Source: Candidatus Aenigmatarchaeota archaeon
GTDB lineage: Archaea > Aenigmatarchaeota > Aenigmatarchaeia > Aenigmatarchaeales > JACQIB01
NCBI GenBank assembly: GCA_043799675.1
Contig: JAZDNN010000025.1
Coordinates: 1-64,000 of the forward strand
Length of the DNA stretch: 64,000 nucleotides
Direction of reading: 5' to 3'
Shown here: positions 13,687-64,000 of the stretch, one piece after another
How positions within the stretch are numbered: the stretch's first letter is position 1
Layout: every line of letters starts with the position of its first letter
The notes under the pieces: model-generated
Told to the model about the DNA's origin: nothing
Seen by the model: the letters and a program-made list of their open reading frames with translations, nothing else
Databases searched by the model: none
Program-made: the position numbers and the translations under genes

Positions 13687-13721
13687 ATTGGCTTTTATTC
13701 CCCGATGCTTAAAAGTGGAGT

Positions 13722-15383: not shown

Positions 15384-15430
15384 AAACAGAATGAATTGCT
15401 GGAGCTTAAATTCTCTTGGTTTGCTTTCCT

Positions 15431-15733: not shown

Positions 15734-15770
15734 AGGCGGTTTTAAGTAATCTACAGGTTTTAAATTGAAT

Positions 15771-15858
15771 GCCTCGGTGGCTCAGTCAGAAGAGCGGCTG
15801 ACACTGGCCGAATCTCGTAAACAGCAGGTCGAGGGTGCAATTCCCTCCCGAGGCTCCA
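15771..15858 (+). tRNA. tRNA-Thr(CGU) with a 12-nt intron at 30/31 (15801-15812)
   Basis: GCCTCGG/CCGAGGC plus TCCA; GCTG|T-CT-CGT-AA-ACAGC; BHB helix CGGC/GCCG. Confidence 0.9.
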
Positions 15859-15951
15859 CTCCACCATTATGGACGTTTTGGAGGCATGTGCTTCCCTTGG
15901 GCTTTTAAGGTTTGTGCAAGGGTTTTATACTGTAAGGTTCAAGTTGATTTG

Positions 15952-47276: not shown

Positions 47277-47356
47277 GCATAGCAATCCGCACAAAACCTT
47301 AAGTGCTCATCATTCAATCCAGAAACCCTTATTACCTTTCCCCAGCATTTTGGTTC

Positions 47357-48950: not shown

Positions 48951-49267
48951 AGTGGGTATGCAAGGTCTGCGGCAGGGTAATCGAAAGCAATGAAAGGCCC
49001 ATTGCCTGTCCGCTGTGCGGGGCCTGCAGCGACTACATCGTTCCCGGGAAGGACTTCAAGGGCATCCAGAAGGCAACCAAGCAAAAGACCGTTGAGAACC
49101 TGAACAGCGCCCTGTCCCTGGAAAAGAACGCCACCAGCCTTTACGAGAAGTTCGCCAAAGAAAGCAGAGAGCATGGTGACGATGACGCAGCGATGATGTT
49201 CACCGCCCTTGCCAGGATCGAGGCAGGCCACCAGATTTCAATCAAGAAGCGGCTGGGCCAGTGCTGA
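48947..49267 (+). CDS. rubredoxin plus half-ferritin (short reverse-rubrerythrin-like) protein
   Basis: WVCKVCG...CPLCGA, then ALSLE...Y...FTALARIEAGH. Confidence 0.8.
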   Translation: MKWVCKVCGRVIESNERPIACPLCGACSDYIVPGKDFKGIQKATKQKTVENLNSALSLEKNATSLYEKFAKESREHGDDDAAMMFTALARIEAGHQISIKKRLGQC

Positions 49268-49319
49268 AGAAGGCGCGTTGATACTCAGGTTTATGAGTCT
49301 TGCGGTCGAAAAAGGAGAT

Positions 49320-49580
49320 ATGGAAAAGCCCAGGGATTTGCGCGTGTATGATAAAGACGAATGTCTGATGCTTACCGAAAAGGAGAAAAGGGAGATCATG
49401 CAGATGCGTAATGATGAGTGTTTTAGGGTCACCGAATACGACAAAAAGCCGCTTGTAAAGGATGATTGTGTGAGGCTCACAGAATCGGAGAAAAAAGAGC
49501 TCATGAAGCCGCTTGCTAACGATCACTGTCTGAGCCTCACCGAAGAGGAGAAAAAAATGTTGAAACGGCGGTATCTGTAA
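49320..49580 (+). CDS. small protein with four Cys-containing repeats
   Basis: RBS aggag; repeats DECLMLTEKEK, DECFRVTEYDK, DDCVRLTESEK, DHCLSLTEEEK. Confidence 0.65.
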   Translation: MEKPRDLRVYDKDECLMLTEKEKREIMQMRNDECFRVTEYDKKPLVKDDCVRLTESEKKELMKPLANDHCLSLTEEEKKMLKRRYL

Positions 49581-49641
49581 GATTATTTGTTCTGACGTTT
49601 TCAACTGAAACCCTTATTACCCGTCTTGCCGTATACCTTTC

Positions 49642-50001
49642 ATGTCCCGCCGCAAGCAGCCGTGGTTCTATTATTTCCAGATAGCCTTCTTTTTCTCCGT
49701 GGGCTTTTTCCTCTACCTGAAGCTGGGCTTTCCCGGTGAATGGGTGGAAGGGCTTGCCATCGGCCTGATAGTGGCCGGCCTCAAGCCGAAGCTGCAGAAG
49801 ATCCTGACGCCGTTCTTCCTGCTCGCCGTCATCATAGCAGCTGTCTTCGACCCCATCCTGAAGCCCTGGCTGGACGCAGCTCTGCATACGAACACCGTCT
49901 CAGGCCTGTGGTTCTCAATATTCGCCAACGTGCCTTTCTTTTTGTTCTACCTGGGAGGGCTCAGGTGGGGGAAGAGGATGCTGGGGAAGATGAAGAAATG
50001 A
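49642..50001 (+). CDS. membrane protein (paralog of 53078-53461)
   Basis: 4 TMs; near-identical protein at 53078. Confidence 0.8.
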   Translation: MSRRKQPWFYYFQIAFFFSVGFFLYLKLGFPGEWVEGLAIGLIVAGLKPKLQKILTPFFLLAVIIAAVFDPILKPWLDAALHTNTVSGLWFSIFANVPFFLFYLGGLRWGKRMLGKMKK

Positions 50002-50075
50002 ATTGTCAAGGGTGACCACAGACCCAAGAAATGTAGTCACCCATTTCTGATAGAGTGCAGAATGTAGTCACCTAT

Positions 50076-50270
50076 TCATTCCCTTATTTTGTGCGTGCAG
50101 CCCTTCAGGAACTCTATCCCTATGAGGTTGTTATCTTTGTCATAGTCTACAATGATTTCGCAGTTCCTGAAGTCAAGGATGTGGTTCCCCTTCACCTGCC
50201 CCTTTCTGGACGGCATCAGCCTGGCATAACCCGTGCAATGCTTGTCAAATCTGATTTTTTGGTCTGTCAT
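50076..50270 (-). CDS. DUF2283-like small protein
   Basis: IIVDYDKDNNLIGIEFL. Confidence 0.7.
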   Translation of the reverse strand: MTDQKIRFDKHCTGYARLMPSRKGQVKGNHILDFRNCEIIVDYDKDNNLIGIEFLKGCTHKIRE

Positions 50271-50284
50271 CTTCAGCCCTTCCG

Positions 50285-50641
50285 TTATTTCTTCCTATAG
50301 CCGAATATCTTATCGTATTTCTTGTGGTCGCAAATTTCGAGAACATAGCATATCACTTCCACCTTGTTGCCGATAATCGTGTAAAGCAATCGCCAATATC
50401 CTGTAAGCTTTACTATCCACAGATTATTGACCGGAAGACCGGTCTTCCTTAACAATGGCTTTGAGATCTGACTACCATATGTAGGATCTTGCTTAAGCAA
50501 ATCGGCAATTCTTTGGATGGATTGAAATAATTGCTGGTTTTGTGAATTTTTGATGCCTTTCTTTTTCTCGTCATTGACTACTGCTTCCAGTCGTTTGTAT
50601 TCCTTCTCGGCCTCGCCCCGGAGTTCTACTATTATGCTCAT
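50285..50641 (-). CDS. RelE/ParE-like toxin
   Basis: DPTYG, NNLWIVKLTGYWRLLYTI, DHKKYDKIFGY; coupled to a small upstream gene. Confidence 0.7.
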   Translation of the reverse strand: MSIIVELRGEAEKEYKRLEAVVNDEKKKGIKNSQNQQLFQSIQRIADLLKQDPTYGSQISKPLLRKTGLPVNNLWIVKLTGYWRLLYTIIGNKVEVICYVLEICDHKKYDKIFGYRKK

Positions 50642-50892
50642 AATCTGATACCTGCCGTCTTTTCTATCATTTTTATGAATTTTGGATCGTTGTTTTCAAT
50701 CCAAACTATTCCTTTACTACCGATTACAATTGACCCCCTGTTCGCAAGATATGCAAGTACGAGCCTCAGTGTCTGGTCCATAATTTTCTTGGGAAGTTTT
50801 CTTTTCAACCCCTCTATGGACAGCGGTCCATCCGCCTCCTGTAGTGCCTTTTCTATCATCAGTACCGTTTTCAAGGTCGGCCAATGATACAC
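50638..50892 (-). CDS. putative wHTH antitoxin
   Basis: HWPTLKTVLMIE...LPKKIMDQTL...GIVWI; ATGA overlap with the toxin. Confidence 0.65.
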   Translation of the reverse strand: MYHWPTLKTVLMIEKALQEADGPLSIEGLKRKLPKKIMDQTLRLVLAYLANRGSIVIGSKGIVWIENNDPKFIKMIEKTAGIRL

Positions 50893-51047
50893 AACTCCAG
50901 TTATCTTTATGTTGATGTTTTTGGTTTCTTTTCAGGTTTCGTTCATACTTTCAAGCATACAATCACAAACATATATGTATATACACTTATATATAAAGTT
51001 AGTGTCCTAGTCAAAACCCTTATCAATCCCCTTCGCCATCAGCTTTC

Positions 51048-51152
51048 ATGCCCAAAGTCCCTGCCGTCAAGCCCCTGAAGCTCTCCCCCTCCTCGTTGAA
51101 CGCCTTCCGCGACTGCCCGAAGTGCTTCTGGCTGGACATGCAGCTGCGGTAG
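51048..51152 (+). repeat. displaced 5' fragment 1 of the nuclease gene at 57965 (34-aa mini-ORF)
   Basis: MPKVPAVKPLKLSPSSLNAFRDCPKCFWLDMQLR-stop. Confidence 0.9.
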
Positions 51153-51208
51153 AAGTGACAGTGAGATCATCCCGAAGCATATTTATTCCACCGATGTAAA
51201 TCGTTTTC

Positions 51209-51745
51209 ATGACACAAGCTCCGGCTGCTTCTGCCCCGGTCAAGTCCTTTGTAGGCGTGCATATGGAAAGCAGACCCTTAGTCTTCAAGAACGAGAATAG
51301 GGTTGCATTTGATTCTATGGTATTCATAGATTTGGTATTGACGGAAGCGGCCAGGCTGGAACTATTGAAACAATGGAAGAACGACCTGAAATGCACGAAG
51401 TTCTTCGTCTCAACAAAGGTCATAGACGAGACTTACGGTGTCCTGATAAACAAGTGCGGCAAGGATCCGGTTGACGCCAGGGCGGCCATAGCCAAAGTAA
51501 AGGAAACTCTGGATATGCGGGAACTGAAGTATGATAAGTCGGTTGACAATAAGCAAGGATTCGCGTTATTCAAGGAATATCAGCGGAGGTTCGGCTACGT
51601 GAATTTGGATGAGCATATCAATGACGGAAGGATAATAGCCCACCTTCGACGGGAAGGCATCAATGTCGTGTATTCAAGGGAAGAAAAGGTCAGAGAATTG
51701 GCCCGGATTGCCGGTATGGAAGCCAGAAACTTCATCTCATTTTAG
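51209..51745 (+). CDS. PIN-domain (VapC-like) nuclease
   Basis: VAFDSMVFI, KVIDE, NDGRIIA, VYSRE acidic pattern. Confidence 0.7.
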   Translation: MTQAPAASAPVKSFVGVHMESRPLVFKNENRVAFDSMVFIDLVLTEAARLELLKQWKNDLKCTKFFVSTKVIDETYGVLINKCGKDPVDARAAIAKVKETLDMRELKYDKSVDNKQGFALFKEYQRRFGYVNLDEHINDGRIIAHLRREGINVVYSREEKVRELARIAGMEARNFISF

Positions 51746-52006
51746 GTAAATCTCGTCAAAAATCTCAACGGCCTTTTCCTCGTTGTTGCCCGCCCTTTTC
51801 ATGGCTTCTTTCCATGCCTTTGCCCTTTCTTCCTTCATTGTTTCGTGTATTTTTGCCTGCGGTTTCACGTTCAGGGATGCCAGAATCTCGAATTCCATGA
51901 GTTCCCTCTCGCATTCCAGCGTCCTTTTGACTCTTTCCTCTAGGGCAGAGAACTTCGTATCGACGGTATTGACGACGGAGGGGACGGTTTGCGGGATCAT
52001 TGACAT
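51737..52006 (-). CDS. small helical protein convergent with the PIN gene
   Basis: ORF with 9-nt convergent overlap. Confidence 0.55.
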   Translation of the reverse strand: MSMIPQTVPSVVNTVDTKFSALEERVKRTLECERELMEFEILASLNVKPQAKIHETMKEERAKAWKEAMKRAGNNEEKAVEIFDEIYLK

Positions 52007-52170
52007 CGGTATACCTTAGTGCCACACCGACAAATTTAAAGTCGTCGGTTTCGCCGACGGCCATATGCAGATTCGTTGTTGTTTCAACGCATCATATAAC
52101 GCTGTTATTATTGATTTTCCAATTCATGACAGGTAAAAATCCTTATCAATCAGTTTTGTCATCTGTTTGC

Positions 52171-52281
52171 ATGCCCCCCTCAGCAGCCAAGCCCCCCAAG
52201 CCTCTGAAATTATCCCCCAGCAGCCTGAACGCTTTCCGTGATTGCCCCAAGTGCTTCTGGCTGGACATGCATTTGCGGTAG
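52171..52281 (+). repeat. displaced 5' fragment 2 of the nuclease gene at 57965 (36-aa mini-ORF)
   Basis: MPPSAAKPPKPLKLSPSSLNAFRDCPKCFWLDMHLR-stop. Confidence 0.9.
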
Positions 52282-52324
52282 AAATGAAACCCTTAGCAAC
52301 GGCCCGTCTCATGCTAAGGCGGTC

Positions 52325-53011
52325 CTATTTGAACATCATGTAGGTTATACCGACGGTTATGGCCTCGCCTACGATGAATGCGGCCAGTGCCGGAACGGAC
52401 CACATGCCCGAAGCATGTGTGCCTCTGATGCTCATGTCCGTGCATGCGCCTGTCAGGAAGCTCAAAAACGTGCCTCCGCCCAGAACATATCCCAATGCTT
52501 TCACCTCGACATCCGCATTTTTCCTCTCCCTTTCACTCCGTTCCCTTTCCATTTCAAGCTGCTGTTCTCTTATCACATCAGGACGTCTCATGTATGCTTC
52601 ATGTTCCGCGGATTGGGATTCGGACCCGTAAAACTGTTCATGAGCCATCTGCAGGCCAATTGACATGGCTTTCGGTGAGCTGTGCGATAATGCCTGTTGT
52701 ATTGCCTCCATATGCAGCTCTTGCCTGGTCTTGGGCGGCTCATGCTGCTTCTTGAGCTCCCGCAATTCTTTCATGTATGCCTGTCCTTGTTGCTCTAAAA
52801 CCGCTCTATCCGCCTGTCGATTTACTATCATCTGATAAGCGATTCTTGCACCATCATCAAGGGATTCCAGACTTGTCGTGGTCCTGCCATGCCGATTGTG
52901 TATTATAAGGTTCGTATAGCTTCCTCTACGTACCACTTCTATACGCTCGGCATCGAATATTTCATTGGCTGTAACGATAACAATCGCTCCAAACGGTAAC
53001 CAGCATCGCAA
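52325..53011 (-). CDS. hypothetical protein with two C-terminal TMs (start uncertain)
   Basis: Coiled region plus two hydrophobic segments. Confidence 0.55.
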   Translation of the reverse strand: MRCWLPFGAIVIVTANEIFDAERIEVVRRGSYTNLIIHNRHGRTTTSLESLDDGARIAYQMIVNRQADRAVLEQQGQAYMKELRELKKQHEPPKTRQELHMEAIQQALSHSSPKAMSIGLQMAHEQFYGSESQSAEHEAYMRRPDVIREQQLEMERERSERERKNADVEVKALGYVLGGGTFLSFLTGACTDMSIRGTHASGMWSVPALAAFIVGEAITVGITYMMFK

Positions 53012-53077
53012 ACCTTAAGAGCCTGACTCACCCGTGTTCGACAAAACCCTTATTACCCTCCCCTCTTAGTTTGTCTC

Positions 53078-53461
53078 ATGCCAAAGCGCAACCGTCCCTT
53101 CTGGAAGAGGGAAATCCCGCCCCGTACCTACTGGCTCTTCCAGATTGCTTTGCTCTTCTCCGTGGGCTTTTTCCTGTACCTCAGGCTGGGCTTCCCCGGC
53201 GAGTGGGTGGAAGGGCTTGCGATGGGCCTGATAGTGGCCGGCATGAAGCCCAAGTGGCAGAAAATCTTCACACCCTTCTTTTTGCTCGCCGTCATCATAG
53301 CGGCAGTCTTCGACCCGATTCTGAAGCCCTGGCTGGACCCATTGTTGCACACCAACACCGTCTCAACCTTATGGTTTTCCATCTTCGCCAACGTGCCCTT
53401 CTTTTTGTTCTATCTTGGAGGGCTGCGGTGGGGCAAGAGGATGCTGAAGAAAGCGCATTGA
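53078..53461 (+). CDS. membrane protein (paralog of 49642-50001)
   Basis: Near-identical protein with the same upstream aaacccttattacc promoter motif. Confidence 0.8.
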   Translation: MPKRNRPFWKREIPPRTYWLFQIALLFSVGFFLYLRLGFPGEWVEGLAMGLIVAGMKPKWQKIFTPFFLLAVIIAAVFDPILKPWLDPLLHTNTVSTLWFSIFANVPFFLFYLGGLRWGKRMLKKAH

Positions 53462-53553
53462 CAAAACCCTTATATCCCGCCCCGGTCAGCTTTCCTGCCC
53501 ACCTGATTTTAATAGTTTGGCACAGCATTCCTGATTGGTGAATATGATGACAG

Positions 53554-53820
53554 GTGCATTGCTTTGGGAAGGACGAGCTGAGGACGTTCCTAGAGCGATC
53601 TCTGTCTGAGCGCGAGAAGGACATTTTCTTACGTACCGCCGCATTGCAGGGAAACTCGGTGACGTCGGTCTCAAGGCTGCTTTCCGGTTATCCGCAGAGC
53701 ACCGCCAAGCTGATCCTCCGCCGCCTCAGGGGAAAGGGGCTGATAATCTATGCCGAAGGCCTGCCTCTCCGCTGCACCCCGCTGGGCAGGAAGGTCGCCG
53801 GCATTCTGGGGGCGGCATGA
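53554..53820 (+). CDS. winged-helix DNA-binding protein
   Basis: SVTSVSRLL...PQSTAKLILRRLRGKGLI...TPLGR. Confidence 0.65.
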   Translation: MHCFGKDELRTFLERSLSEREKDIFLRTAALQGNSVTSVSRLLSGYPQSTAKLILRRLRGKGLIIYAEGLPLRCTPLGRKVAGILGAA

Positions 53821-54777
53821 ATGGACATTCCGGAATACGTCAGGAGGTTCGTCGATGAGCAGGAGCTTGAGGTGGTTGAACGGTTTGGCAGCGGCAACTC
53901 CGGGGCGCTGGTCTACAGGGTGCGGACGGGCGGAAAGGATGCCGTGCTGAAGATGGCCTCGGGCGGGAGGGGGCTGGACGAGATAAGGGGGAACATTGCC
54001 GGCTATGAAAAGATCAGGGAGGCTCGCCTGGAGGAGATATTGCCGGAAGATATCAGGGTCTACGCGGACAAGGACTTCACCGCAATCCTGATGGAATACC
54101 TCGGGGACAGCTTCTACGACCGTACGCTGAAGGAGCCCGAACCTACTGGTCTTTACAGGGAACTGGCCGGTTCGTTCAGGCGGTTGTGCGAACGGACCGT
54201 GAGGAAGGACGATGAGTCCAGGCGCATGCTGGTGGAGGTGAAGGACAACCTCCGTGCAAAGTACGAGGACTTCCTTCTCGGTGAGGGATACATAGGAAAA
54301 CAGGATGTCGGGCTGCTGGATTCCGTGGACACTGATGCCCTTTCCCCGGATTTCAGTTCGTTCGGCTGCTACGATTTCACGCCCGAGGACGTGTTCCTTG
54401 TGAATGGCAGGCTGAAGTATCCTGACCCGAAGCAGGACGTGCGCGGCTGCCCTCTCATTTCGTTGGCGGCTTTTGCGGGCGTCTCGCGGGATTCGTACGG
54501 CCTGCCCGGTTCGGAGGAAGGCTACGGGGTGCTGGAGCGATTGGCTGTAGAAGACCTTCCAGAGCTCTTGCACATAAGTCAGCCCAACGCCCGCAGGCTG
54601 TTCTCGTTGGGCCGTGCCATGCAGCTGGCCATCTCGTCCAAGTACAGGATAGGGACCGACCCCGGGAAGGCAAAGCTGTTCGCCGCCGGAAGTGTTGACT
54701 GCCTGGCTCATGTTCTGGAATCACGACCCTCAACGATGGGGGCACGTCCGGTGGGAGGTGAGAAGAATGGGATCTGA
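53821..54777 (+). CDS. atypical protein-kinase-like (APH-type) phosphotransferase
   Basis: GSGNSGALVY, AVLK, ILMEYLG, YDFTPEDVFL, YPDP. Confidence 0.7.
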   Translation: MDIPEYVRRFVDEQELEVVERFGSGNSGALVYRVRTGGKDAVLKMASGGRGLDEIRGNIAGYEKIREARLEEILPEDIRVYADKDFTAILMEYLGDSFYDRTLKEPEPTGLYRELAGSFRRLCERTVRKDDESRRMLVEVKDNLRAKYEDFLLGEGYIGKQDVGLLDSVDTDALSPDFSSFGCYDFTPEDVFLVNGRLKYPDPKQDVRGCPLISLAAFAGVSRDSYGLPGSEEGYGVLERLAVEDLPELLHISQPNARRLFSLGRAMQLAISSKYRIGTDPGKAKLFAAGSVDCLAHVLESRPSTMGARPVGGEKNGI

Positions 54778-55177
54778 TGATAAGGAGCTGGCGAAGTTCG
54801 ACAGTTTCATGGGGCCGCTCGTCCTCGATGTACGGCGTGCGGAACAAAGGTCGGAAGCTGAGAAGAAGTACTGCCGCATGAGGGACGGGAGCAGCGGCTT
54901 CTGCAGGCTGTTCAAGCTGTCTCCGCGGGAATGCGACAGGGAAGTGACCGAATCAACGGACCTCGCGCAGGAGTGTTCCGCATACGGCAACCATGTGCGT
55001 TTCATAAGGAATTGCAGCGAGCGCGAGACCAGGACGGTGACCGTGAAGTCGCCCGTCTGCGGCTATGCGGACATGGAGGCGGATGTAACGTACTGCAAGT
55101 TCCAGGACAAGCCCTGCGATGACTGCGGTGTGCGTCCCAAGCATACCGACTCGTACTGCGCGATGATGAACGACTGA
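54767..55177 (+). CDS. Cys-rich hypothetical protein
   Basis: RBS ggaggtga; about 10 Cys. Confidence 0.6.
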   Translation: MGSDDKELAKFDSFMGPLVLDVRRAEQRSEAEKKYCRMRDGSSGFCRLFKLSPRECDREVTESTDLAQECSAYGNHVRFIRNCSERETRTVTVKSPVCGYADMEADVTYCKFQDKPCDDCGVRPKHTDSYCAMMND

Positions 55178-55193
55178 AGGTGTTTTCGGGAGG

Positions 55194-55221
55194 GGAAGCA
55201 GGGCCCGCTTCCCTCTTTTTT
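55194..55221 (+). terminator. hairpin plus T-tract terminator
   Basis: gggaagc...gcttccc followed by tcttttt. Confidence 0.6.
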
Positions 55222-55359
55222 ATCCCGCCGGACTTTGGTCGGGCAGGAGGATGCTGGGGAAGTGACCCTCTACCGTTAGTTTTATATACTACTAAGGCGT
55301 AATTAAGAAGTGTCCGATAGCATCGTGCGAAAGGTCAGCCGTATAATGTTCTTGGTGAA

Positions 55360-56346
55360 ATGATGTTTGAAAGACCTATCGACGGAAACGGGATGTCAAT
55401 GACCCCCGTCGGGTACAAGTACATGGAGCCCGGCTGTTACATGAAGGACTACGGATTCAGCGGCAGGAGCGGCAATGATATTCCCGGACCGGCGATGATA
55501 GTTACCGAACCTCTTTACCACGCGGACTGGTTCCAGATGGCAGCCAAGGATGCACAGGCCGCCATGGACCATTACAATGCCAAGGCCGCGATAGAGGACG
55601 CCTATCACAGGAAAACGGATGCCTGGTGGCAGGCCCAGACCGATCAGGGCGCTCTGGAAGGGATGATGGAAGAGATCGCTCAGATGCACGAACGCGCAAG
55701 GTGGCGCGACATGAACAGGCAGATCGGCCGCCTGCTGGTTGAGAATTCTGACATGAAGATTACCGACGCCTTCAGGGAGGCTCTGCAGGTCAGCAATATA
55801 GAGGACAAATACCCCGAGGACGAGCCCGTGACAATTTATTTCCCGCACGAGAGCCAGCCGGAGGAAGTATCCTATGATACCTTCGTTCAGAGCATTGTGA
55901 TACCGGTTGAACATTCACTCCTTCTTGCCCTGAGGGGCAGGAAGGTCTACGACCGGTCCAGAACCGAATATACAAAAAATCTCGGATGGGGCGAGATATT
56001 CGGCACGGAAGGCGAGCATTTTCACATAACCGTCCCGAACCCGCCTACCATACAGGAACTCATAACCCATAACAGGGAGACCTGGGGCAGGATACACGGC
56101 ACATGGGACGTCGTCAAGGCGCAGCGTGCCTTGGGAATAAATCGTGAGCATTCGTTCGGGCCCGTGTCCGGCACCCTGGAAGCAACGATAGTGGTTGACT
56201 CTCTCAAGAAAATGGGTTCCTTGGAGCGCAGAGTGGAAATCAGTTCCGTAAAACTGGACGATTACAAGACCCCGTGGGGTACGTACGACCTGCAAAAGAT
56301 GGTAAGTGATTGCGGTGTCGACCTGAGAAAACTGAGGAAGAAGTAG
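55360..56346 (+). CDS. hypothetical protein
   Basis: Long ORF with RBS ggtga and TATA tttatata upstream. Confidence 0.65.
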   Translation: MMFERPIDGNGMSMTPVGYKYMEPGCYMKDYGFSGRSGNDIPGPAMIVTEPLYHADWFQMAAKDAQAAMDHYNAKAAIEDAYHRKTDAWWQAQTDQGALEGMMEEIAQMHERARWRDMNRQIGRLLVENSDMKITDAFREALQVSNIEDKYPEDEPVTIYFPHESQPEEVSYDTFVQSIVIPVEHSLLLALRGRKVYDRSRTEYTKNLGWGEIFGTEGEHFHITVPNPPTIQELITHNRETWGRIHGTWDVVKAQRALGINREHSFGPVSGTLEATIVVDSLKKMGSLERRVEISSVKLDDYKTPWGTYDLQKMVSDCGVDLRKLRKK

Positions 56347-56353
56347 TGATGTC

Positions 56354-56764
56354 ATGGCAAGCGAGGAAGAAATAGAAAATGCGTTGGCAAGCATCCCGTA
56401 TATGCGGCTCGCGGAGGCCGCAAAAAGTGAAATGCCCATCAGGACGTTCAAGGAGAACTACGAATGGTCCAATTGGGCATGCCTTTCGCAGACGCGCACA
56501 AGGTATTACGAGATAGAAGGGGTGGCAAAGCAGGCGCTTGCCGCGTTCTACAGGATGAAACTGCGTGCACCTGAGGACATAGTGGACAGGGTGATGGCGA
56601 ACATGGTAGACCTGAATTACTTGCGCGAGCATGCCAAGTCCGGCATATGCTGCGCCCCGGCTTCGCGCAGTTTTCACGAGTATTCCGATTCCGTTGAATT
56701 CACGCCGAGAAGACTGACGGAAGAGGACAGATGGCCGAGCAACGTCATGGAATTTCTGGTGTGA
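56354..56764 (+). CDS. hypothetical protein (tandem paralog 1)
   Basis: MASEEEIENALA...GICCAP...EEDRWPSNVMEFLV. Confidence 0.7.
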   Translation: MASEEEIENALASIPYMRLAEAAKSEMPIRTFKENYEWSNWACLSQTRTRYYEIEGVAKQALAAFYRMKLRAPEDIVDRVMANMVDLNYLREHAKSGICCAPASRSFHEYSDSVEFTPRRLTEEDRWPSNVMEFLV

Positions 56765-56773
56765 AGTGACGTT

Positions 56774-57188
56774 ATGGCAAGCGAGGAAGAAATAGAAAAT
56801 GCATTGGCAAACGTCCCGTATCTGCAGCTCGTGAAGGCCGCAAGGAATGAATTGCCCACTTAGAAGATTCCAGGAAAATTACAGCTGGCATTCTTGCCTT
56901 ACAGGGGATACCCCGTTAAGGTTTTATGAAATAACAGGCGTAGCAAAGAAGGCACTGGCCGCATACTATAGAATAAAGGTGCGAGGGCCTGAAGATGTTG
57001 TGGAAACAATAATAGAAAATATGAAGGATTTGGGTTTCATACGAGAACATAAACGGGAAGGAATCTGTTGCGCCCCGCCTTACCGCAGCGACTTTCGTGG
57101 TTGGGATGGGGGTTATCCTACCTTCCATCCATGGAGACGCGTCGATGAAGATAATTGGCCAAGCGACGTTATACAATTCTTAGTATGA
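56774..57188 (+). pseudogene. tandem paralog 2 with a +1 frameshift near 56855
   Basis: MASEEEIENALANVPYLQLVKAARNELP then stop; removing one C restores LRRFQENY...WPSDVIQFLV. Confidence 0.75.
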
Positions 57189-57225
57189 AGCTCTTCGTCA
57201 AGAAATCCTTATATCCCGCCCTCGT

Positions 57226-57423
57226 TCATTCCCGCTGCTCTTCCTCTTCCTCTTCAATCAGTTCCACCGGTTTGCCCCTCTTGCCCCAGCTCACCGCGCT
57301 CTTCAGCTCAAGGCGCCATATCCCGCCGTCCTTCCATATCACGTTCAGCTCGCCGGTGAACCCGTCCCTCTTCATGCCTTCCAGGACCTGTGAATTGAAC
57401 AGCCCTATCTGTCTGGCCGCCAT
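57226..57423 (-). CDS. small hypothetical protein
   Basis: GFTGELNVIWKDGGI; start uncertain. Confidence 0.45.
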   Translation of the reverse strand: MAARQIGLFNSQVLEGMKRDGFTGELNVIWKDGGIWRLELKSAVSWGKRGKPVELIEEEEEEQRE

Positions 57424-57661
57424 TTCCGCATCGTGATTCCTGCCTCCCCTCATAACAAGCACCGGAAGATAGCTGAAGGATAGCTTGTACCGGTGGATTA
57501 TGGCGTTTTGGGTGAGGCAAACTCAAGGTTGGGACAAGGAGGTTGGAAAAGGCATTGACGAGGTCAAGGAAAAGGAAAAAATAAAATTTCCAGAAAAACG
57601 GCAGTTGACGCTGGATGATTCGTTCACAACAACTTTTCTTTTTCGGCGCGAGCATACTAGC

Positions 57662-57934
57662 ATGAGTATCGACCGCGAGATTGCAAAAGCCATTGGGGTC
57701 ATTGGTTTTATTGGCGTAATGATTTGGGTAATATCCAGTCTACCATGTCTGTTGAAACCTAACGATACATGCATCGGCTCCGTGATAACCGGAGCCGTCG
57801 AAAACAGCGTCCCAGCGATAGTATCAGTGGCCGAACCTGCATCCTTGAGCTCAACAGCAGCAATTATCATCGCTTTAGTGATTGCTGCCATTGTCATCTT
57901 TCTTCCAAAAACATGGAAGGCGCTTATAGACTGA
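57662..57934 (+). CDS. small 2-TM membrane protein
   Basis: Two hydrophobic segments. Confidence 0.55.
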   Translation: MSIDREIAKAIGVIGFIGVMIWVISSLPCLLKPNDTCIGSVITGAVENSVPAIVSVAEPASLSSTAAIIIALVIAAIVIFLPKTWKALID

Positions 57935-57964
57935 ATTTATCAATCAGTTTTGTCATTTGCTATC

Positions 57965-58639
57965 ATGCCCTCATCCCCCTCCGTCAAGCCCCTGAAGCTC
58001 TCCCCCTCCTCCCTGAACGCCTTTAGGGACTGTCCGAAGTGCTTCTGGCTGGACATGAACGGGAAGGGCGCGCCCCCGGGCTTCCCTATGGCCCTTCTGT
58101 GCGTGATGGACGGGATCCAGAAGCGCTATTATGACAGCCACAGGGCGGAAGGCCTGCCGCCCATGCTCAAGGGAAAGGTGCCCTTCAAGCTGGTTGATTT
58201 GGAGACGGCCGAGAAGCTGCGTCACTATATAACATGGAACGATGAACAGACCGGGGCCGTCCTGAGGGGTAAGATGGACGATTGCTTTATCGACAGGGAC
58301 GGCACGCTCGTGGTCATGGACAATAAGACCAGGAGCGGCGAGTTCAAGGAGATCTATGACGGATACATGTTCCAGCTTGACACCTACGCCTTCCTGCTGG
58401 CCAAGAACGGGTTCAAGGTCGGAAAGACGGGCTATATCGTGTATTTCGTGCCCGACAAGGAAAGCGACATGGAAAAGGGCGTGAAGTTTGACGTTGATGT
58501 TAAGTCCGTGGAGCTGCATCCCGGCCGCGTGCTTGGGGTGTTCCGGGATGCCGTAAAGCTTGCCCGCCAGGCAAAGCCGCCTGCCAATCACAAGGAGTGC
58601 GAGATGTGCGCCTGGGTCGCCAAGATGGGGGAGATGTAA
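57965..58639 (+). CDS. Cas4-like / RecB-type PD-(D/E)XK nuclease (solo)
   Basis: LSPSSL...CPKCFW, LRGKMDD, VMDNKT, QLDTY (QxxxY), C-terminal CEMC. Confidence 0.85.
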   Translation: MPSSPSVKPLKLSPSSLNAFRDCPKCFWLDMNGKGAPPGFPMALLCVMDGIQKRYYDSHRAEGLPPMLKGKVPFKLVDLETAEKLRHYITWNDEQTGAVLRGKMDDCFIDRDGTLVVMDNKTRSGEFKEIYDGYMFQLDTYAFLLAKNGFKVGKTGYIVYFVPDKESDMEKGVKFDVDVKSVELHPGRVLGVFRDAVKLARQAKPPANHKECEMCAWVAKMGEM

Positions 58640-58816
58640 ATGTTCAAGCCTGCCCCCTTGCATTCCGCGGCTGCAAGGCTGCCAGCGGGCACTCCTGCTG
58701 AGTGCGAATGTCGGCGGTGGATTCAAGCTGTTGGGGAGATGTAGAGGCGGACGTGGTAAATGTAAGGATTAATAACGGGCGAATGCTACGTAGGAAGTTG
58801 AAAGGAGAGGTAGAGC

Positions 58817-61800
58817 ATGGATTTAAATATTCAAGCACTTTTAGAAAAATTCAAAGAAGGGTTAACATTAGACGGTAGAAAGAAGGTTTTTGAAGATGGG
58901 TATAAACTATCTTCAGATTCTTTATTACAAAAATCTGATCCAGAAGCTTTTACCAAAGATTTCCTAGTAGGACCTGTACTCAATATGTTTGAGTTGTCAA
59001 AACTAACAGAGAGACATTTCAGAGGTATTACAGGAGAGTTAAGAAAAGTTGATTATTTATTAAAAAACCAAAAGAACATATCGTTTTTAGTCGAAGCAAA
59101 ATCTTTAAATTCAGATCTTTTTGAAAAAGGACCGGATGGAGCAGTAAATCAGATTCAAGGATTATTCAGGCTCGCAGAAGTAAAGGAAAATTATAAGTTT
59201 GGTATAGCGACAGATGGATTGAAATGGGTTTTCATTGACAGAAATTCTAAAGTCGTTTTTCGGTTGGAATTGATCAAGGAATTGAAAAAGATTAAAGAAA
59301 TATTGATAGGGAAAGAAGAAGTTTCATCTGAAAGGATAGAAGAAGAAATTAGCAAGAAATTTTATGAGTGGTATAACGCCCTACTACATGGCGGAAAATA
59401 CAAAGACCATGAAAACAAAGTAAGAAAAATTTCCATTAAAGATTGCTTCGTCGAAAACATTCTGTTTGCATCAATTCTAGAAGAAAGAGAACAGATAGCC
59501 CAAACAATAATGGATAGACTGATTTTCATAAAATTCTTGCAGTCGAAAAATATCGTTGGTTATGACATTCTTGATTATCTAATAAATCTCGATGAAAACA
59601 TCCTTAATGAAAAAATAAAACAATTATTTTTTTCTGTTCTAAATACAAAGAAGGATGAAAGATCAGATATTGATACAAAATTCAAAAATGCACCATACCT
59701 TAATGGTAGTTTATTTGTAAGAACAGAAGTAGAACTCAAAAACCCTGACTATAAGATTAAAGCCTTCATATTGAAAGAAGTTATAAGATTCTTGAATTCT
59801 TTCAAATTTGTTCATACCGAAGATGTTTCAAATCACCAAATTTTAGACCCGGAGATTCTTGGATATATTTTTGAGAAAGCAATGACAGCAAAAGATAGAA
59901 AAGGAACTGGTGCTTACTATACCCGTAAATCAATAACAAATTACATTTCTGAAAATACGATACATCCAGTTATTGTAAAAAATGTAAATAAACTATTGAA
60001 AGAGAAGGGCTACAAAGATTCTGAATTTTTAAAAGATGTTGAACAGGTTTACAGTTTGAGGGAATCTACACTTGGAGAAGTTTTTAGTCAAGTAATCCTT
60101 AACTTGAAAATATGCGACAATGCCTGCGGTTCTGGTGCTTTCTTATTGGCAGCCGCAGACGTTCTTTTGGAAGTTTATAGTAGAATAAATGGGGAATTGA
60201 GGTTAAAGAATTCAGAAATAGCAATGAGAAAGCTGATTTTGAAGAATAATCTTTACGGTGTTGATATAAACCCAAATGCCATCGAAATAGCAAAATTAAG
60301 ATTATGGTTGTGGCTTGTTACAGCTTACGAACCAGAAAAAGTTGAACCATTACCTAATATTGATTATAATATAAGAGTTGGAAACAGCTTGATAGGTTAT
60401 ATCAATATAAGCAGATTCAAAGAACATAAACTAACACTTCTTGACTGGTATAGTGCTGAAAAATCATTAAACCTGATGCTGAAAAAGAGAGAAGAAATAA
60501 TACAGAAATATAAAGATGCTGTCGGGGATAAAGCAAGAGAATTAAAAAATGAAATAGACGAGCTTGACAGAAAAATAAAGAAGCTTCTTGATATCAATTT
60601 ATTCCAGGAAATAAGTAAAAAAGCCGATATAGGAGAAGAAGAATTTAAAAAACTAATTCCATTCCATTGGGGATTTGAATTTTACGATGTTTTCGATGGT
60701 AATGGCGACAAAGGTTTTGATGCTGTTATAGGAAATCCGCCATATTTCAAAATCTTCGAGAAAAACATAATCAATAAAACAAACGAATATGAAGAAATTA
60801 AAAGTGGCATGATGAATGCAGCTGCTATTTTTGTTAATCGAACACTTAATTTAACTGACCGTTCTGGTCACGTAGGTATGATAGTTCCAAAAATGTTGGC
60901 TTTCACAGATTCGTGGGACAAAATTAGACAGAAGTTATTAAGAAATTTTACCATGGAAAGAGTAATCGATTGTGGCAAGGCCTTTAAGGGTGTACTTCTA
61001 GAACAAGTAATTTTCATTTTGGATAAATCACCGTTTTCTGAGAAGCATAAAATAGTTATAGGGTACATAGAAGATGGTAGAATCACAGAAACTGCAAAAG
61101 TGATGCAAAGTTTATGTCAAGAAGAAGATGGAATTTATCTCGAACCGAATCAGAAGGCATATTACATAAAAGAAATACTCGAGAAGTCAAAAATCAGATT
61201 AGTAGATGTTTCAGATATTACACTTGGCTTAGGAATACAGGGTAAAAAAGATGTTTTTGTTGAAAGATATCAAAAATGTTATAATAAGGTGCTTCGTGGT
61301 AATGATATTCAAAGGTACTATATCAGAGGATGTAAATTCTATGATCCTAATGACAAAAAAATAGGTGAATATAAAAAAACAATTGAGAAATTTAAAACTC
61401 CTCATATAGTAGTGCAAAGAATTGTGGCCCATATAAGAAACCATATAAAAATTACCGCGGCATTGGATATGGAAGGTATTTTTTCATTCAATACGGTTAC
61501 AAACATCTTTATGAAAGATAAACAATATGACTTAAAATATATTTTGGCTATTCTAAATTCAGATGTAATTCAATATTATACTTATAAATTTATATATAAA
61601 AACGCTATCAGATCGATGGATTTTTATAAAGCATATGCTGGAAAAATACCATTACCAAAAGTAACAGATTCTCAGCAAAAAGAAATAATTAGCTTAGTAG
61701 ATAAAATGTTAGAATTATCAAAGACGTCAACTGAAAAGAACCATAAAACAAATAATGAAATCGAAAAAATAGAAGAATATATTAATGAAATTATTTACTC

Positions 61801-61855
61801 ACATTATGGTATCGGTAAGGAAGAGCAAGAAACCATAAAAGAGAGTTTGAAATAA
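58817..61855 (+). CDS. Type IIG fused restriction endonuclease-methyltransferase (Eco57I/TaqI-like)
   Basis: VDY...VEAK nuclease, GAYYT, DNACGSGAFL, GNPPY, C-terminal TRD; strongly AT-rich. Confidence 0.92.
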   Translation: MDLNIQALLEKFKEGLTLDGRKKVFEDGYKLSSDSLLQKSDPEAFTKDFLVGPVLNMFELSKLTERHFRGITGELRKVDYLLKNQKNISFLVEAKSLNSDLFEKGPDGAVNQIQGLFRLAEVKENYKFGIATDGLKWVFIDRNSKVVFRLELIKELKKIKEILIGKEEVSSERIEEEISKKFYEWYNALLHGGKYKDHENKVRKISIKDCFVENILFASILEEREQIAQTIMDRLIFIKFLQSKNIVGYDILDYLINLDENILNEKIKQLFFSVLNTKKDERSDIDTKFKNAPYLNGSLFVRTEVELKNPDYKIKAFILKEVIRFLNSFKFVHTEDVSNHQILDPEILGYIFEKAMTAKDRKGTGAYYTRKSITNYISENTIHPVIVKNVNKLLKEKGYKDSEFLKDVEQVYSLRESTLGEVFSQVILNLKICDNACGSGAFLLAAADVLLEVYSRINGELRLKNSEIAMRKLILKNNLYGVDINPNAIEIAKLRLWLWLVTAYEPEKVEPLPNIDYNIRVGNSLIGYINISRFKEHKLTLLDWYSAEKSLNLMLKKREEIIQKYKDAVGDKARELKNEIDELDRKIKKLLDINLFQEISKKADIGEEEFKKLIPFHWGFEFYDVFDGNGDKGFDAVIGNPPYFKIFEKNIINKTNEYEEIKSGMMNAAAIFVNRTLNLTDRSGHVGMIVPKMLAFTDSWDKIRQKLLRNFTMERVIDCGKAFKGVLLEQVIFILDKSPFSEKHKIVIGYIEDGRITETAKVMQSLCQEEDGIYLEPNQKAYYIKEILEKSKIRLVDVSDITLGLGIQGKKDVFVERYQKCYNKVLRGNDIQRYYIRGCKFYDPNDKKIGEYKKTIEKFKTPHIVVQRIVAHIRNHIKITAALDMEGIFSFNTVTNIFMKDKQYDLKYILAILNSDVIQYYTYKFIYKNAIRSMDFYKAYAGKIPLPKVTDSQQKEIISLVDKMLELSKTSTEKNHKTNNEIEKIEEYINEIIYSHYGIGKEEQETIKESLK

Positions 61856-62140
61856 ATGCCCTCATCTGTACCCCAAACCGTCAAATGCCCCTTCTGCCAA
61901 GTCGGCGACATAACGGTCTTCATCAAGGAAAAGTCATTCTCGACCAAAAAGACCCGCTGCCGGGCAGGTCGCAGCTCAACGACTACCGTTCATCATGCAC
62001 GGATGGAGGCCCTAAATGACTGCCCCTCCTGTCATGCTTCCAAAAAGGATATCGAATCCAAGCTCAAGGGCAGCAAATCAATGTCCGCCTCCGATGCAGC
62101 CAAAAGGGCCCAGGCGGCCGGCTTGCCGACGCGCATATAG
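61856..62140 (+). CDS. small zinc-finger protein (anchor of the 3' repeat array)
   Basis: CPFC...CPSC, ends KRAQAAGLPTRI. Confidence 0.8.
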   Translation: MPSSVPQTVKCPFCQVGDITVFIKEKSFSTKKTRCRAGRSSTTTVHHARMEALNDCPSCHASKKDIESKLKGSKSMSASDAAKRAQAAGLPTRI

Positions 62141-62340
62141 CAGGATTACGCAGAGCGGTCATGGTCCGCTTTCTTTGCGCCTTTTCTTACTTCGCTTTTA
62201 TCTTCCGCATATGCCTTGCCGTAGAAGCAGAAAGCCATCGATGCCAGCCAAAAGAGAATCACGACGGCGGTAGAGGGGCATAATGTCATAATTACGCTAT
62301 ATCATAACCTGTATATAAACCTTATGTCACAACAGCAAGC

Positions 62341-62478
62341 ATGGCGAAGAAGCGGACCACGCTCTACCTGCGCGAGGACCTGTGGAAGAAGCTCAGGCAC
62401 CTTTCCATAGACCAGGAAAAGAGCACCTCTCAGTTGCTTGAGGAGATAGTGGAAAGTCACCTGAAGAAGATGAAGTGA
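62341..62478 (+). CDS. ribbon-helix-helix protein
   Basis: Manual translation MAKKRTTLYLREDLWKKLRHLSIDQEKSTSQLLEEIVESHLKKMK; TATA tatataaa upstream. Confidence 0.8.
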   Translation: MAKKRTTLYLREDLWKKLRHLSIDQEKSTSQLLEEIVESHLKKMK

Positions 62479-62485
62479 TTCCTAT

Positions 62486-62680
62486 ATGGAACGAAAAGTA
62501 AAGAATGAAATAAAAGATTATACGCAATTGTTTTGGTTAGGTATAGTAGGCGCTTTTTGTGCTTTAATTTTTCAGAATGCTGATTTTTCATCAGGTTCTG
62601 ATATGGCATGGCGGTTGGCGTCTACTATGATTATATATTTCACAGGATTTGTATTTTATCATTGGTACAATAATATTTGA
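62486..62680 (+). CDS. small 2-TM membrane protein
   Basis: AT-rich, two hydrophobic segments. Confidence 0.6.
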   Translation: MERKVKNEIKDYTQLFWLGIVGAFCALIFQNADFSSGSDMAWRLASTMIIYFTGFVFYHWYNNI

Positions 62681-62739
62681 TTTCGTTATCCTCATACGGA
62701 GGGCTCAGGCGGCCGGGCTGCCGACGAGGATATGACTTT

Positions 62740-63147
62740 CTATTCCTCTTCAACTATCTCCGCAGATTCAATCCAGTACAGTTTGATGTCAGATTTCTTG
62801 ACTTCTGGAATGACGTGCTTGAGGCACTCGCGGATGTGATTATCGTTGGGTTGGGCTATGGCGATGATTGCGTTTTGATCCTTGTTCCGCTCTTCCAGGA
62901 TCTTAACCAGTGCTTTGCCGAAATGGTCCTTTATCTGGCCCGAATCGAATTTCGGGCGTTTTGTAACATGAGATCTCGGATTGCCTTTGCGGCCTTTGGC
63001 CTCCACTATTAGACGCTTTCCATCTTTTCGTGCAACGATATCACATCCATGCTTGTGACCTATGGAAGTTTCCTCAATTTTCCATCCTCTTGTTTCTAAC
63101 CATTTACACAAGCATCTTATGACGTCATCTTCGAACTCAATTTTCAT
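62740..63147 (-). CDS. small PD-(D/E)XK endonuclease-fold protein
   Basis: EDDV, GCDIVARK...LIVEAKG, GQI. Confidence 0.75.
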   Translation of the reverse strand: MKIEFEDDVIRCLCKWLETRGWKIEETSIGHKHGCDIVARKDGKRLIVEAKGRKGNPRSHVTKRPKFDSGQIKDHFGKALVKILEERNKDQNAIIAIAQPNDNHIRECLKHVIPEVKKSDIKLYWIESAEIVEEE

Positions 63148-63207
63148 GCACTAGATTGGGGAAGAGGGATATTAAGTTGCGAAGGCGGCCGGCCTACCAA
63201 CGCGCAT

Positions 63208-63771
63208 TTAGCGACGGTAAGACCAGAGTATGAAATCCAGCAATTTCACGTCGTTTATGTCGTTTTTATCGATTATCAGAGACGCTCTTGTCCTGTCTAA
63301 CATGCCTTTTATTCTATCGTCGTTAAGCAGCTCCTGGAATTTTCTTTCAAGCTCATTGTATTTTTCGCAGGCATCATTAATTCCATTAGGTGTCTTAAGA
63401 CCGAACGCGCGTCTGATTTGGCTGTCCCAAATCGGTTTGTCGGGCTCAACAGTATGTTTGATTTTAGTCGCAAAGCTGAATTGAACGTTCTTATCGATAC
63501 GATACAACCCCTCTAAAATTGTTCTCAAGTCAGACTCCTTGTTATAGAGAAATTCAAACAATTCACGAACAACGGCCTTGGACGGAAACCTGATTACGTA
63601 GAATCGCTTAAACCTTTTTTCAAAGAATTCCTTATCTGGAACGTCGGCACCAAACTGTTTCATGATCCATACATAGTCTTTCAATTCATCCCTTCGTCTA
63701 AGGTAATCTATTATTTTCTTTTCATTTTCGAGCAAATCGTCTATGTCCATACCAAGAATAGCCGGCATCAC
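63208..63771 (-). CDS. hypothetical protein (possible HhH/glycosylase-like fold)
   Basis: FKRFY, QFSFATKIKH...PIWDS, KLLDFILW. Confidence 0.6.
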   Translation of the reverse strand: MMPAILGMDIDDLLENEKKIIDYLRRRDELKDYVWIMKQFGADVPDKEFFEKRFKRFYVIRFPSKAVVRELFEFLYNKESDLRTILEGLYRIDKNVQFSFATKIKHTVEPDKPIWDSQIRRAFGLKTPNGINDACEKYNELERKFQELLNDDRIKGMLDRTRASLIIDKNDINDVKLLDFILWSYRR

Positions 63772-64000
63772 ATCTAATAAGCGTTAGATGCTTCGTGCCC
63801 AAGCGGCCGGGTTGCCGACCAGAATCTGACCTGAAAGGCTGTCGCGGCTGCCAAAAGGCCCTTCGCCGGGGGATACGAAAATAGCTATGTTAGAATACTT
63901 TTATGAAAACTGTTGATTAAGAATTTTATTTAATTTCAAGCGACTCTCTTATTGCATCTAGTACAGGTTCGGCTTTTGCATACGATTCTACTACTTCATC

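Follow-up and report, generated by a model that had tools for sequence, protein, structure and literature searches.

Displaced gene ends around a restriction-modification module mark a hypervariable defence island, probably assembled by serial insertion, in an Aenigmatarchaeota genome

The first 64 kb of contig C6 of a Candidatus Aenigmatarchaeota genome (hereafter the window) contain, near their right end, three co-oriented genes around which accessory and defence genes have accumulated together with displaced pieces of two of the three genes themselves. The contig is 67.1 kb long (it runs to position 67100) and belongs to a genome, G000, of 749 kb in 45 contigs that is 83% complete and has a guanine-plus-cytosine (GC) content of 0.54. 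An intact gene for a PD-(D/E)XK nuclease resembling solo Cas4 (57965-58639, + strand, 224 aa, GC 0.58) is followed, after a 177-nt spacer, by a Type IIG restriction-modification (R-M) gene (58817-61855, +, 1012 aa, GC 0.31) and by an intact gene for a 94-aa Zn-ribbon protein (61856-62140, +, GC 0.55) with a CPxC...CPxC arrangement and a C-terminal AGLPxxI tail. The ATG of the last gene immediately follows the R-M stop codon (TAAATG). To the left of the island lie host-like genes for DNA-alkylation repair and flavodoxin; its right limit is near C6 65500, where an SNase-like gene of host GC follows. The original prediction for this DNA pictured the nuclease and the Zn-ribbon genes as two intact, co-oriented anchors of host-like GC, with the AT-rich R-M gene between them, the Zn-ribbon ATG directly behind the R-M stop, and gene fragments and cargo gathering outside. 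All of this is borne out by the coordinates above and by the arrays on the two sides, which comprise two copies of the nuclease 5' end and three of the Zn-ribbon 3' end.

The displaced nuclease copies consist of the promoter and the first ~32 codons, and both lie upstream of the live gene; they are the only other matches in the genome to the nuclease protein (E 2.8e-14 and 6.9e-12). Fossil A (51020-51158, +) has a promoter-like stretch, an ATG at 51048 and 31 nuclease codons, and closes with QLR-stop. Fossil B (52133-52287, +), separated from fossil A by a cassette of ~1 kb (cassette 1, 51159-52132), likewise has a promoter-like stretch, an ATG (52171) and nuclease codons, and closes with HLR-stop. 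Over 24 codons (K8-M31), fossil A departs from the live gene at 6 nt, every one of them synonymous; fossil B does so at 15 nt, spread over 11 codons, again without a single amino-acid change. Two serine codons have even switched codon family, and at random 78% of changes in these codons would be nonsynonymous. The two fossils share a break point at ...CTGGACATG, after which they have ~18 nt in common that are absent from the live gene, and then run into unrelated sequence. In the four copies of the nuclease 5' end that are known, one of them on an independent contig described below (L078), the 21 nt leading up to the break are the same, while 5-11 of the 17 codons upstream of this block are changed among the copies.

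On the other side of the module, three displaced copies of the last 11 codons and stop of the Zn-ribbon gene lie downstream of the live gene, each closing a cassette. Fossil 1 (62700-62735, +; RAQAAGLPTRI-stop) shows seven nucleotide differences, all synonymous; fossil 2, in the middle (63176-63211, +; VAKAAGLPTRI-stop), has two replacements; and the outermost, fossil 3 (63794-63829, +; RAQAAGLPTRI-stop), has ten nucleotide differences in 7 of the 12 tail codons, all synonymous. Both TAG and TGA occur as stop codon, alternating among the copies. The three fossils start within one codon of each other and contain the invariant 8-mer GCGGCCGG; altogether, the tail copies have 34 nt in common at 74-85% identity. 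A degenerate 17-nt pattern of the tail finds five matches in 5.3 kb (four of them exact) against 0.30 expected, and none of 200 shuffles reached five. No further tail copy was found between fossil 3 and the contig end, and no hairpin beyond those of shuffles at the four tail sites on either strand (z -0.89 to +0.93). Both the two nuclease 5' copies and the three Zn-ribbon 3' copies are in register and on the same strand, as the flanks (attL/attR) of integrated elements would be.

Because the copies differ almost only synonymously, they are once-working allele ends from diverged lineages and not decayed local duplications. Their codon pattern is that of gene ends kept under purifying selection, each in its own lineage, and brought together afterwards. 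The cargo enclosed by them is also compositionally foreign on the right side and in the left-most cassette (GC 0.33-0.47, against 0.54 for the genome). Two of the right-hand cassettes are clear antisense single-gene units that fill the space between neighbouring fossils exactly. In one (62740-63147, -, GC 0.44), a gene for a weakly Mrr-like protein of 135 aa (Mrr_cat 6.5e-4; 20.2 bits, below the 21-bit Pfam cut-off) stops 4 nt past fossil 1, and 28 nt separate its start from fossil 2. In the other (63208-63771, -, GC 0.40), a 187-aa open reading frame (ORF) with a weak, below-cut-off match to DUF6308 overlaps the stop of fossil 2 and starts ~22 nt before fossil 3. TATA-like stretches akin to the local promoter consensus lie just inside these two cassettes, which thus appear to carry promoters of their own.

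A third gene is involved on the left. The 119-aa membrane-protein gene M1 (49642-50001, +) forms a third anchor and has a paralog, M2 (53078-53461), inside the large cassette 2 (~5.7 kb, 52288-57936) that separates fossil B from the live nuclease gene; the two are 84% identical in nucleotides and 87% in amino acids. The last 18 codons of a membrane-protein gene, much decayed, may be present once more in the same cassette (55209-55262), and we tentatively regard this stretch as a third copy preserved as a fossil. None of the 41 relatives of the order has a homolog of M1. A mosaic homolog does occur on L078, an independent 2.7-kb contig from another metagenome, together with three ORFs unlike the cargo of the window and a nuclease 5' fossil. 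The junction and downstream sequence of this fossil match fossil A, and its coding part is nearer to fossil B. As the cargo between the membrane gene and the fossil is different on L078, the slot holds different cargo in a related population, which makes this contig a natural cargo variant; the mosaic character of both the fossil and the membrane gene indicates that the repeated pieces recombine with each other. Among public sequencing runs, no match was listed for a run containing 54500-64000.

Arrays of the same kind recur in relatives. Extra same-strand copies of the Zn-ribbon tail were found at 4 of the 14 Zn-ribbon loci of the order (this genome included) and at 1 of 16 further loci from genome_contigs (L082), and the length of the duplicated tail varies among loci from 11 to 24 codons. 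The copy lies 69 nt downstream of the Zn-ribbon gene in G031, 1.06 kb downstream in G016, where the cargo is HicA and a 103-aa ORF, and 6 kb downstream on contig 8 of G025, where it encloses an ABC-3C system, a Shedu-like gene, a Hjc/Mrr-like nuclease and a winged helix-turn-helix (wHTH) gene. In L082, where two copies are present, the cargo is a DUF2283 pair together with an AAA_14/DUF4143 ATPase. Thus, the prediction that both genes stay intact while cargo accumulates outside them stands, and the Zn-ribbon tail serves repeatedly as a landing site. The nuclease 3' end is probably another. In G007, a nuclease 3' fossil lies between the nuclease and the R-M gene (L034 2358-2411), and a 143-nt gene-end repeat is found upstream of the nuclease, which is itself only 17-18% identical to that of the window. 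In the nuclease/R-M spacer of the window, a less clear look-alike of the nuclease 3' end (58682-58744, +) has 6 of 22 codons identical, a weak resemblance that we tentatively attribute to a much decayed fossil.

The three genes inside the arrays belong together. By its predicted domains, the product of 58817-61855 qualifies as a Type IIG enzyme and a predicted nuclease: one polypeptide chain combines N6 methylase motifs of the gamma class with a region of Eco57I/MmeI type and a recognition domain of TaqI_C type (Eco57I 1.4e-29, N6_Mtase 2.2e-14, TaqI_C 2.7e-14, MmeI_Mtase 1.5e-8; PADLOC REase_MTase_IIG 4.3e-59). GC drops from ~0.6 to ~0.3 within some 60 nt before the R-M start and rises again exactly at the stop. 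Over its first ~750 residues, the protein shares 72-73% identity with the enzymes of AT-rich relatives (the G022 locus has a GC of 0.30); the last ~260, which form the recognition domain, have no match at this level. Within the trio, only the R-M ORF looks foreign, and we read it as a probable in-situ replacement by an AT-rich allele inside a standing module. The original prediction had instead treated the R-M gene as an insert between two independent anchors. That part has to be abandoned, since the same order of PD-(D/E)XK nuclease, Type IIG gene and Zn-ribbon recurs in G001 and G007, with the Zn-ribbon start 2-5 nt past the R-M stop, and since the Zn-ribbon gene is typically terminal in R-M operons. 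The nuclease, the Type IIG enzyme and the Zn-ribbon protein are therefore one module, not two anchors split by an insert.

The association of the Zn-ribbon gene with R-M systems extends well beyond this trio. We annotated the neighbours at 29 loci (the window, 13 others of the order and 15 further genome_contigs loci). At 20 of them the Zn-ribbon gene has an R-M or DNA-methylase gene no more than three genes away, and at 11 that gene is its immediate upstream neighbour on the same strand. The partners are Type IIG in G000, G001, G007, G018, L081 and L087, Type I on contig 22 of G025 and in L103 and L104, Type II in L096 and Type III in L101. At L030 (contig 8 of G025), the region 5' of the Zn-ribbon gene (10252-16008) encodes a PAPS-reductase (DndC-like), an SMC-like ATPase, a 63-aa ORF and a ResIII helicase; this cluster looks like a Dnd-like DNA-modification and restriction system in place of a methylase-based one.

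Taken together, these observations point to a hypervariable island of accessory and defence genes around an R-M module, probably built by serial single-crossover (Campbell-type) insertion at gene ends. Insertion would have targeted the 5' end of the nuclease gene, the 3' ends of the Zn-ribbon and membrane-protein genes and, probably, the 3' end of the nuclease gene as well. Every cassette that came in would bring its own diverged copy of a gene end. A single crossover between a circular DNA with such a copy and the chromosome would join the incoming end to the gene, and the resident end would be displaced outward and remain on the far side of the insert as a fossil. Repeated crossovers at the gene-proximal site would then stack cassettes, with the oldest outermost. 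Since the incoming end becomes the working end and the resident one is displaced, this scheme would keep the genes intact while cargo stacks up on both sides. Observed are the fossils with their synonymous-only divergence and shared break points, the foreign GC of the cargo, the recurrence in relatives and the natural cargo variant; a circular intermediate, the sequence of the insertions and the enzyme are inferred. As the cassettes encode no recombinase, recombination would have to be supplied in trans, either by host homologous or short-homology recombination or by the integrase of a transient element.

Several results weigh against serial insertion or against particular forms of it. No recombinase was found by Pfam (PF00589 included) among the 26 island ORFs that we scanned, those of cassette 2 among them. 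The genome as a whole yielded no PF00589, PF00239, PF01609 (DDE_Tnp_1) or PF01867 (Cas1), but at 83% completeness this does not prove their absence from the organism. Neither a circular intermediate nor an empty site was encountered: no public sequencing run was listed, and the flanking DNA-alkylation repair and SNase-like genes are near each other in none of the 41 relatives. Zn-ribbon arrays were absent from all 20 loci with at most 1.5 kb of flank, and no same-strand array was seen at 40 loci of the wider class with up to 7 kb downstream. Integrases do occur near Zn-ribbon genes in G008 and G013; no att repeats joining them to the Zn-ribbon tail were detected. Finally, a single site-specific integrase would not explain the use of four different gene ends in one island, and tail copies with 34 nt at 74-85% identity offer little to RadA-type recombination, which speaks against the plain homologous form of the model.

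As to what might carry out the crossovers, the evidence pulls in two directions. On one hand, the use of four gene ends, the lineage-dependent length of the duplicated part and the mosaicism of L078 favour host recombination, homologous or short-homology. On the other hand, the identical break points within the genome, the short shared arm after the nuclease break and the short, diverged tail copies with one invariant 8-mer favour a trans-acting site-specific enzyme. Our slight preference is for host recombination at the nuclease and membrane-gene sites, whereas at the Zn-ribbon tail we slightly favour a recombinase acting in trans. In L101, a gene for a 294-aa tyrosine recombinase lies 250 nt past the Zn-ribbon stop; this is where the contig stops, and XerA is a possible identity for the gene. 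A bolder version of serial insertion would see a DPANN cassette-capture platform that uses codons at the ends of conserved island genes as attachment sites (most clearly at the tail of the Zn-ribbon gene), with the Zn-ribbon/R-M module as the fixed platform and either an unrecognised recombinase or host recombination alone as the agent. We regard this extension as unlikely; if true, it would amount to an integron-like way of stocking defence and toxin-antitoxin genes in genomes that encode no known integrase.

Could the fossils instead be the debris of whole modules, stacked in tandem and then trimmed by random deletion, with no insertion of cassettes at gene ends? The Zn-ribbon gene is indeed multi-copy in some genomes (five loci in G025, three in a Woesearchaeota metagenome-assembled genome, mostly beside different R-M systems), the order Zn-ribbon, fossil, cargo, nuclease in G031 is a circular permutation of that in G000, and small genomes have a deletion bias. 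However, a break point that recurs in three copies of the Zn-ribbon tail and in two of the nuclease 5' end (three if L078 is counted) is not what random deletion would produce, and neither is the shared ~18-nt arm; a self-comparison of the island by tblastx revealed no internal remnants of the nuclease, R-M or Zn-ribbon genes, and the cassettes are exact single-gene units. We consider trimming of this kind improbable. The nuclease 5' copies, taken by themselves, could also be live mini-genes (34-36 codons with a promoter and an ATG, closing directly behind the CPxC motif) selected, for example, as regulators or decoys, given that A, B and the L078 copy all retain the promoter-like stretch, start codon and open frame, with only synonymous changes over 24 codons. 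Yet the Zn-ribbon tail copies have changed synonymously too and possess neither a start codon nor an upstream frame, so displacement explains both arrays and mini-genes only one, and the odds we would give the latter are low. As the genome is metagenome-assembled and the copies share exact blocks of 8-21 nt, one might also suspect strain variants stitched together at short shared sequences during assembly or binning. This is hardly credible: contig ends overlap by exactly 141 nt, which implies a last assembly k-mer of 141, far above any shared block, and the fossil-A junction reappears on the independent contig L078, as does the overall pattern in other assemblies.

The original prediction went further and speculated that the Cas4-like nuclease and the Zn-finger protein might themselves take part in capturing cargo. 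The protein passes the PDDEXK_1 cut-off (2.3e-12; 47.9 bits versus 22) and scores as Cas4 in PADLOC (7e-8), but remains below the Cas4 family cut-offs (PF01930, 16.9 versus 22.7 bits; TIGR00372, 21.1 versus 65). Solo-Cas4-like proteins are described as common in DPANN archaea in PMC5704561, and a nuclease without Cas1, for which the 83%-complete genome gave no match, fits this description; the same source describes Cas4 enzymes as processing DNA ends. The nuclease occurs in 3 of the 41 relatives of the order. Linkage between the two genes is real in G001 and G031, where the Zn-ribbon gene is 1-3 kb from the nuclease (~3 kb and in the same order in G001), and a Cas4-like gene precedes the Type IIG and Zn-ribbon genes in G007, although that nuclease is the highly diverged one mentioned above. 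The linkage fails elsewhere: among 13 metagenome loci with nuclease homologs (45-73% identical; nine of the loci at least 8.5 kb long), none has a Zn-ribbon gene, and none has fossils except L078, itself a fossil. Conversely, three tail arrays stand without a nuclease homolog or PD-(D/E)XK gene beside the Zn-ribbon gene, as none was seen among the annotated neighbours in G016 and L082, nor a significant match within 10 kb on contig 8 of G025. In the window, moreover, the nuclease is itself a target, with its 5' end replaced. Prediction of a complex between the two proteins gave a score of 0.02 against a mark of 0.32, which lends no support and counts neither way. An active part of the pair in capture is thus very improbable. 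The shared start that had been noted for the two genes exists, as both begin with ATGCCCTCATC, but finds no support as a signal: when one mismatch is tolerated, two or more occurrences turn up in 43 of 100 shuffles, and homologs and fossils start differently.

Insertions that replace a gene end are known from other systems. The prophage e14 is described as inserting in the 3' end of icd in E. coli, where it leaves a 163-bp pseudo-icd (icd'), and Rac as inserting at the 5' end of ttcA (PMC6379469). The insertions of e14, phage 21 and Rac resemble the island in that the element supplies the replacement gene end, the gene stays functional and a pseudo-end is displaced. These prophages bring their own integrase and insert singly, whereas the island, in an archaeon, has up to three successive fossils per site and recombinase-less cassettes of 0.5-5.7 kb. 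Also comparable are cis-mobilizable elements (CIMEs), which lack recombinases, accrete beside integrative conjugative elements (ICEs) and stack in tandem at a target gene, as in the ICE/IME tandems of the ICESt1/ICESt3 type covered in PMC5704250. The island units similarly lack recombination genes, lie between repeated gene ends and stack at the target gene; they differ in that neither a helper element nor an integrase whose specificity matches was identified, that several gene ends are used, and that the units are single genes, apparently with promoters of their own, and do not look like decayed large elements. Use of 3' ends also has an archaeal precedent: according to PMC6563490, the 3'-distal parts of protein genes host 14 of 68 integrated mobile genetic elements in Thaumarchaeota; a Zn-finger gene is among these targets, its stop codon replaced by the element, and arrays are said to form by re-use of a site. 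Unlike the island units, these elements encode integrases or casposases. Integron arrays share with the island compact, mostly single-gene cassettes lined up at a fixed platform gene, with a copy of a short site closing each one; here, however, neither the island nor the 83%-complete genome yielded an IntI or any other tyrosine recombinase, there is no attC-type folding, and the sites are conserved as codons. The kind of event is therefore known, and what is new is its multi-site, recombinase-less, cassette-sized form in a DPANN genome, along with the tie of the Zn-ribbon family to the ends of R-M operons. At the level of literature listings and abstracts, we found nothing on a Zn-ribbon protein tied to archaeal R-M systems or on DPANN integration hot spots of such form.

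These findings matter because DPANN genomes are tiny and the gain and turnover of their defence genes are poorly known; the present genome has no detectable integrase, transposase or Cas1. The island offers a readable record of at least five separate gene-end imports, for which the fossils provide relative dates.

The Zn-ribbon family itself is small and lineage-restricted. The protein belongs to no Pfam, NCBIfam or PADLOC family; relatives form 241 clusters at E<=1e-3 among 1.84 billion representatives, and the family is present in 64 of 301 genomes of the class, this one included. Titles of contigs with relatives are mostly those of Aenigmatarchaeota, then Woesearchaeota, Micrarchaeota and Nanoarchaeota; viral contigs contained none. 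A link to the Nitrososphaera Zn-finger gene that NitEve-E2 targets (PMC6563490) was considered and set aside; the profile found matches in only 8 of 301 sampled Nitrososphaeria genomes, five at E<=1e-10 and three borderline at ~5e-4. One of the eight, G583, is unpublished, and nothing here depends on it. The structure model (mean pLDDT, predicted local distance difference test, 73) had no fold match: the best Foldseek hit in the PDB reached E 0.5, with MqsA N-domain rows only at E 0.7-2, the best Z in a wide VIA-align search was 3.5, and nothing in the protein atlas exceeded 0.85. By analogy with R-M controller (C) proteins and other small regulators, which are encoded in R-M operons across R-M types, the Zn-ribbon protein is a candidate R-M regulator, a role that would fit its terminal position in Type I, II, IIG and III operons. 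C proteins are helix-turn-helix proteins, usually encoded upstream of the nuclease gene; the Zn-ribbon protein differs in having no helix-turn-helix, no family model and no fold match. Whatever its role, the family marks the 3' border of R-M operons of four types and provides a handle for finding variable defence loci. One of its loci, L082, is titled as a candidate division Kazan bacterium; since it has the same gene order and a near-identical Zn-ribbon tail as L083 from Aenigmatarchaeota, it is probably a mis-binned archaeal contig.

With respect to cargo, the defence-rich content put forward in the original prediction is confirmed in part. Support exists for the nuclease, the R-M gene, an NsnA-like gene, a DUF2283 gene and, weakly, the Mrr-like gene; the RelE, PIN and ribbon-helix-helix labels found none in Pfam, NCBIfam or PADLOC. 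Among the 26 island proteins, PADLOC matched only the nuclease, the R-M gene, the NsnA/PD-T4-2_A-like gene and the flanking SNase. The NsnA/PD-T4-2_A-like gene (C6 64395-65489; PADLOC 5.8e-66) lies just beyond the window and is part of an AT-rich pair on the minus strand (C6 63926-65489, equal to L004 2127-3690) encoding a 364-aa DUF262-type protein and a 155-aa partner without matches. The pair is probably a further defence system at the outer edge of the island, with no Zn-ribbon tail copy bounding it. On the left, AT-rich cargo between M1 and fossil A (50076-50892, -, GC 0.40-0.46) consists of the DUF2283 gene (64 aa; Pfam 2.6e-5) followed by ORFs of 118 and 84 aa, the pair labelled RelE-like in the original prediction, for which Pfam, NCBIfam and PADLOC gave no match. 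The two ORFs of cassette 1 (178 aa, 51209-51745, +; 89 aa, 51737-52006, -) match no Pfam, NCBIfam or PADLOC family. Cassette 2 is mostly of host-like GC and holds about ten ORFs without family matches; its content, in order, is a 228-aa ORF (-), M2, an 88-aa wHTH gene, ORFs of 318 and 161 aa, the membrane-gene 3' fossil, a 328-aa ORF, a pair of tandem paralogs, a 78-aa ORF (-) and a 149-aa ORF. The tandem paralogs (56345-57188; 136 and 113 aa) are 86% identical over their first 94 nt, and the conserved N-terminus of the second is found in another frame; the second paralog is either a frameshifted copy or the carrier of a programmed shift.

Some further features of the genome deserve mention. 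Several genes of the window share a promoter-like motif, AAACCCTTAT(T/C)A, ~25-35 nt before the ATG (47323-47366, 49604-49647, 51010-51053, 52133-52176, 53040-53087, 53460-53492 and 57927-57970), which suggests leaderless transcripts with a common B recognition element (BRE) and TATA box. A 123-aa ORF just left of M1 (49209-49580) consists of three repeats of a KDECLxLTExEKKE-like unit and has no family match. Contig C43 contains four two-hairpin elements of ~60-75 nt (12437-12511, 13929-13998, 14928-14996 and 15867-15941) just 5' of ribosomal-protein genes (the S4e, L6, L19e and L18 region), with compensatory changes in one stem. We considered this four-copy repeat as a second cassette array and rejected it, as the copies are intergenic hairpins within a ribosomal-protein operon; possibly they are operon-internal elements of processing or translational control. 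On contig C16, three ~92-nt copies (528-619, 11635-11724 and 19071-19154), 78-86% identical and 11 kb and 7.4 kb apart, end in reverse complement like a tRNA acceptor with its CCA end, and Rfam places a single tRNA-Thr nearby (13551-13635). They could be marks of integrated elements or unrecognised intron-bearing tRNAs. Finally, a repeat family built around the palindrome GGGAACCTAGGTTCCC beside CCAATTTAGGAGGAATAAGCCC is found on contigs C29 (9260-9460 and 12290-12353) and C14 (1743-1803 and 2845-2905).

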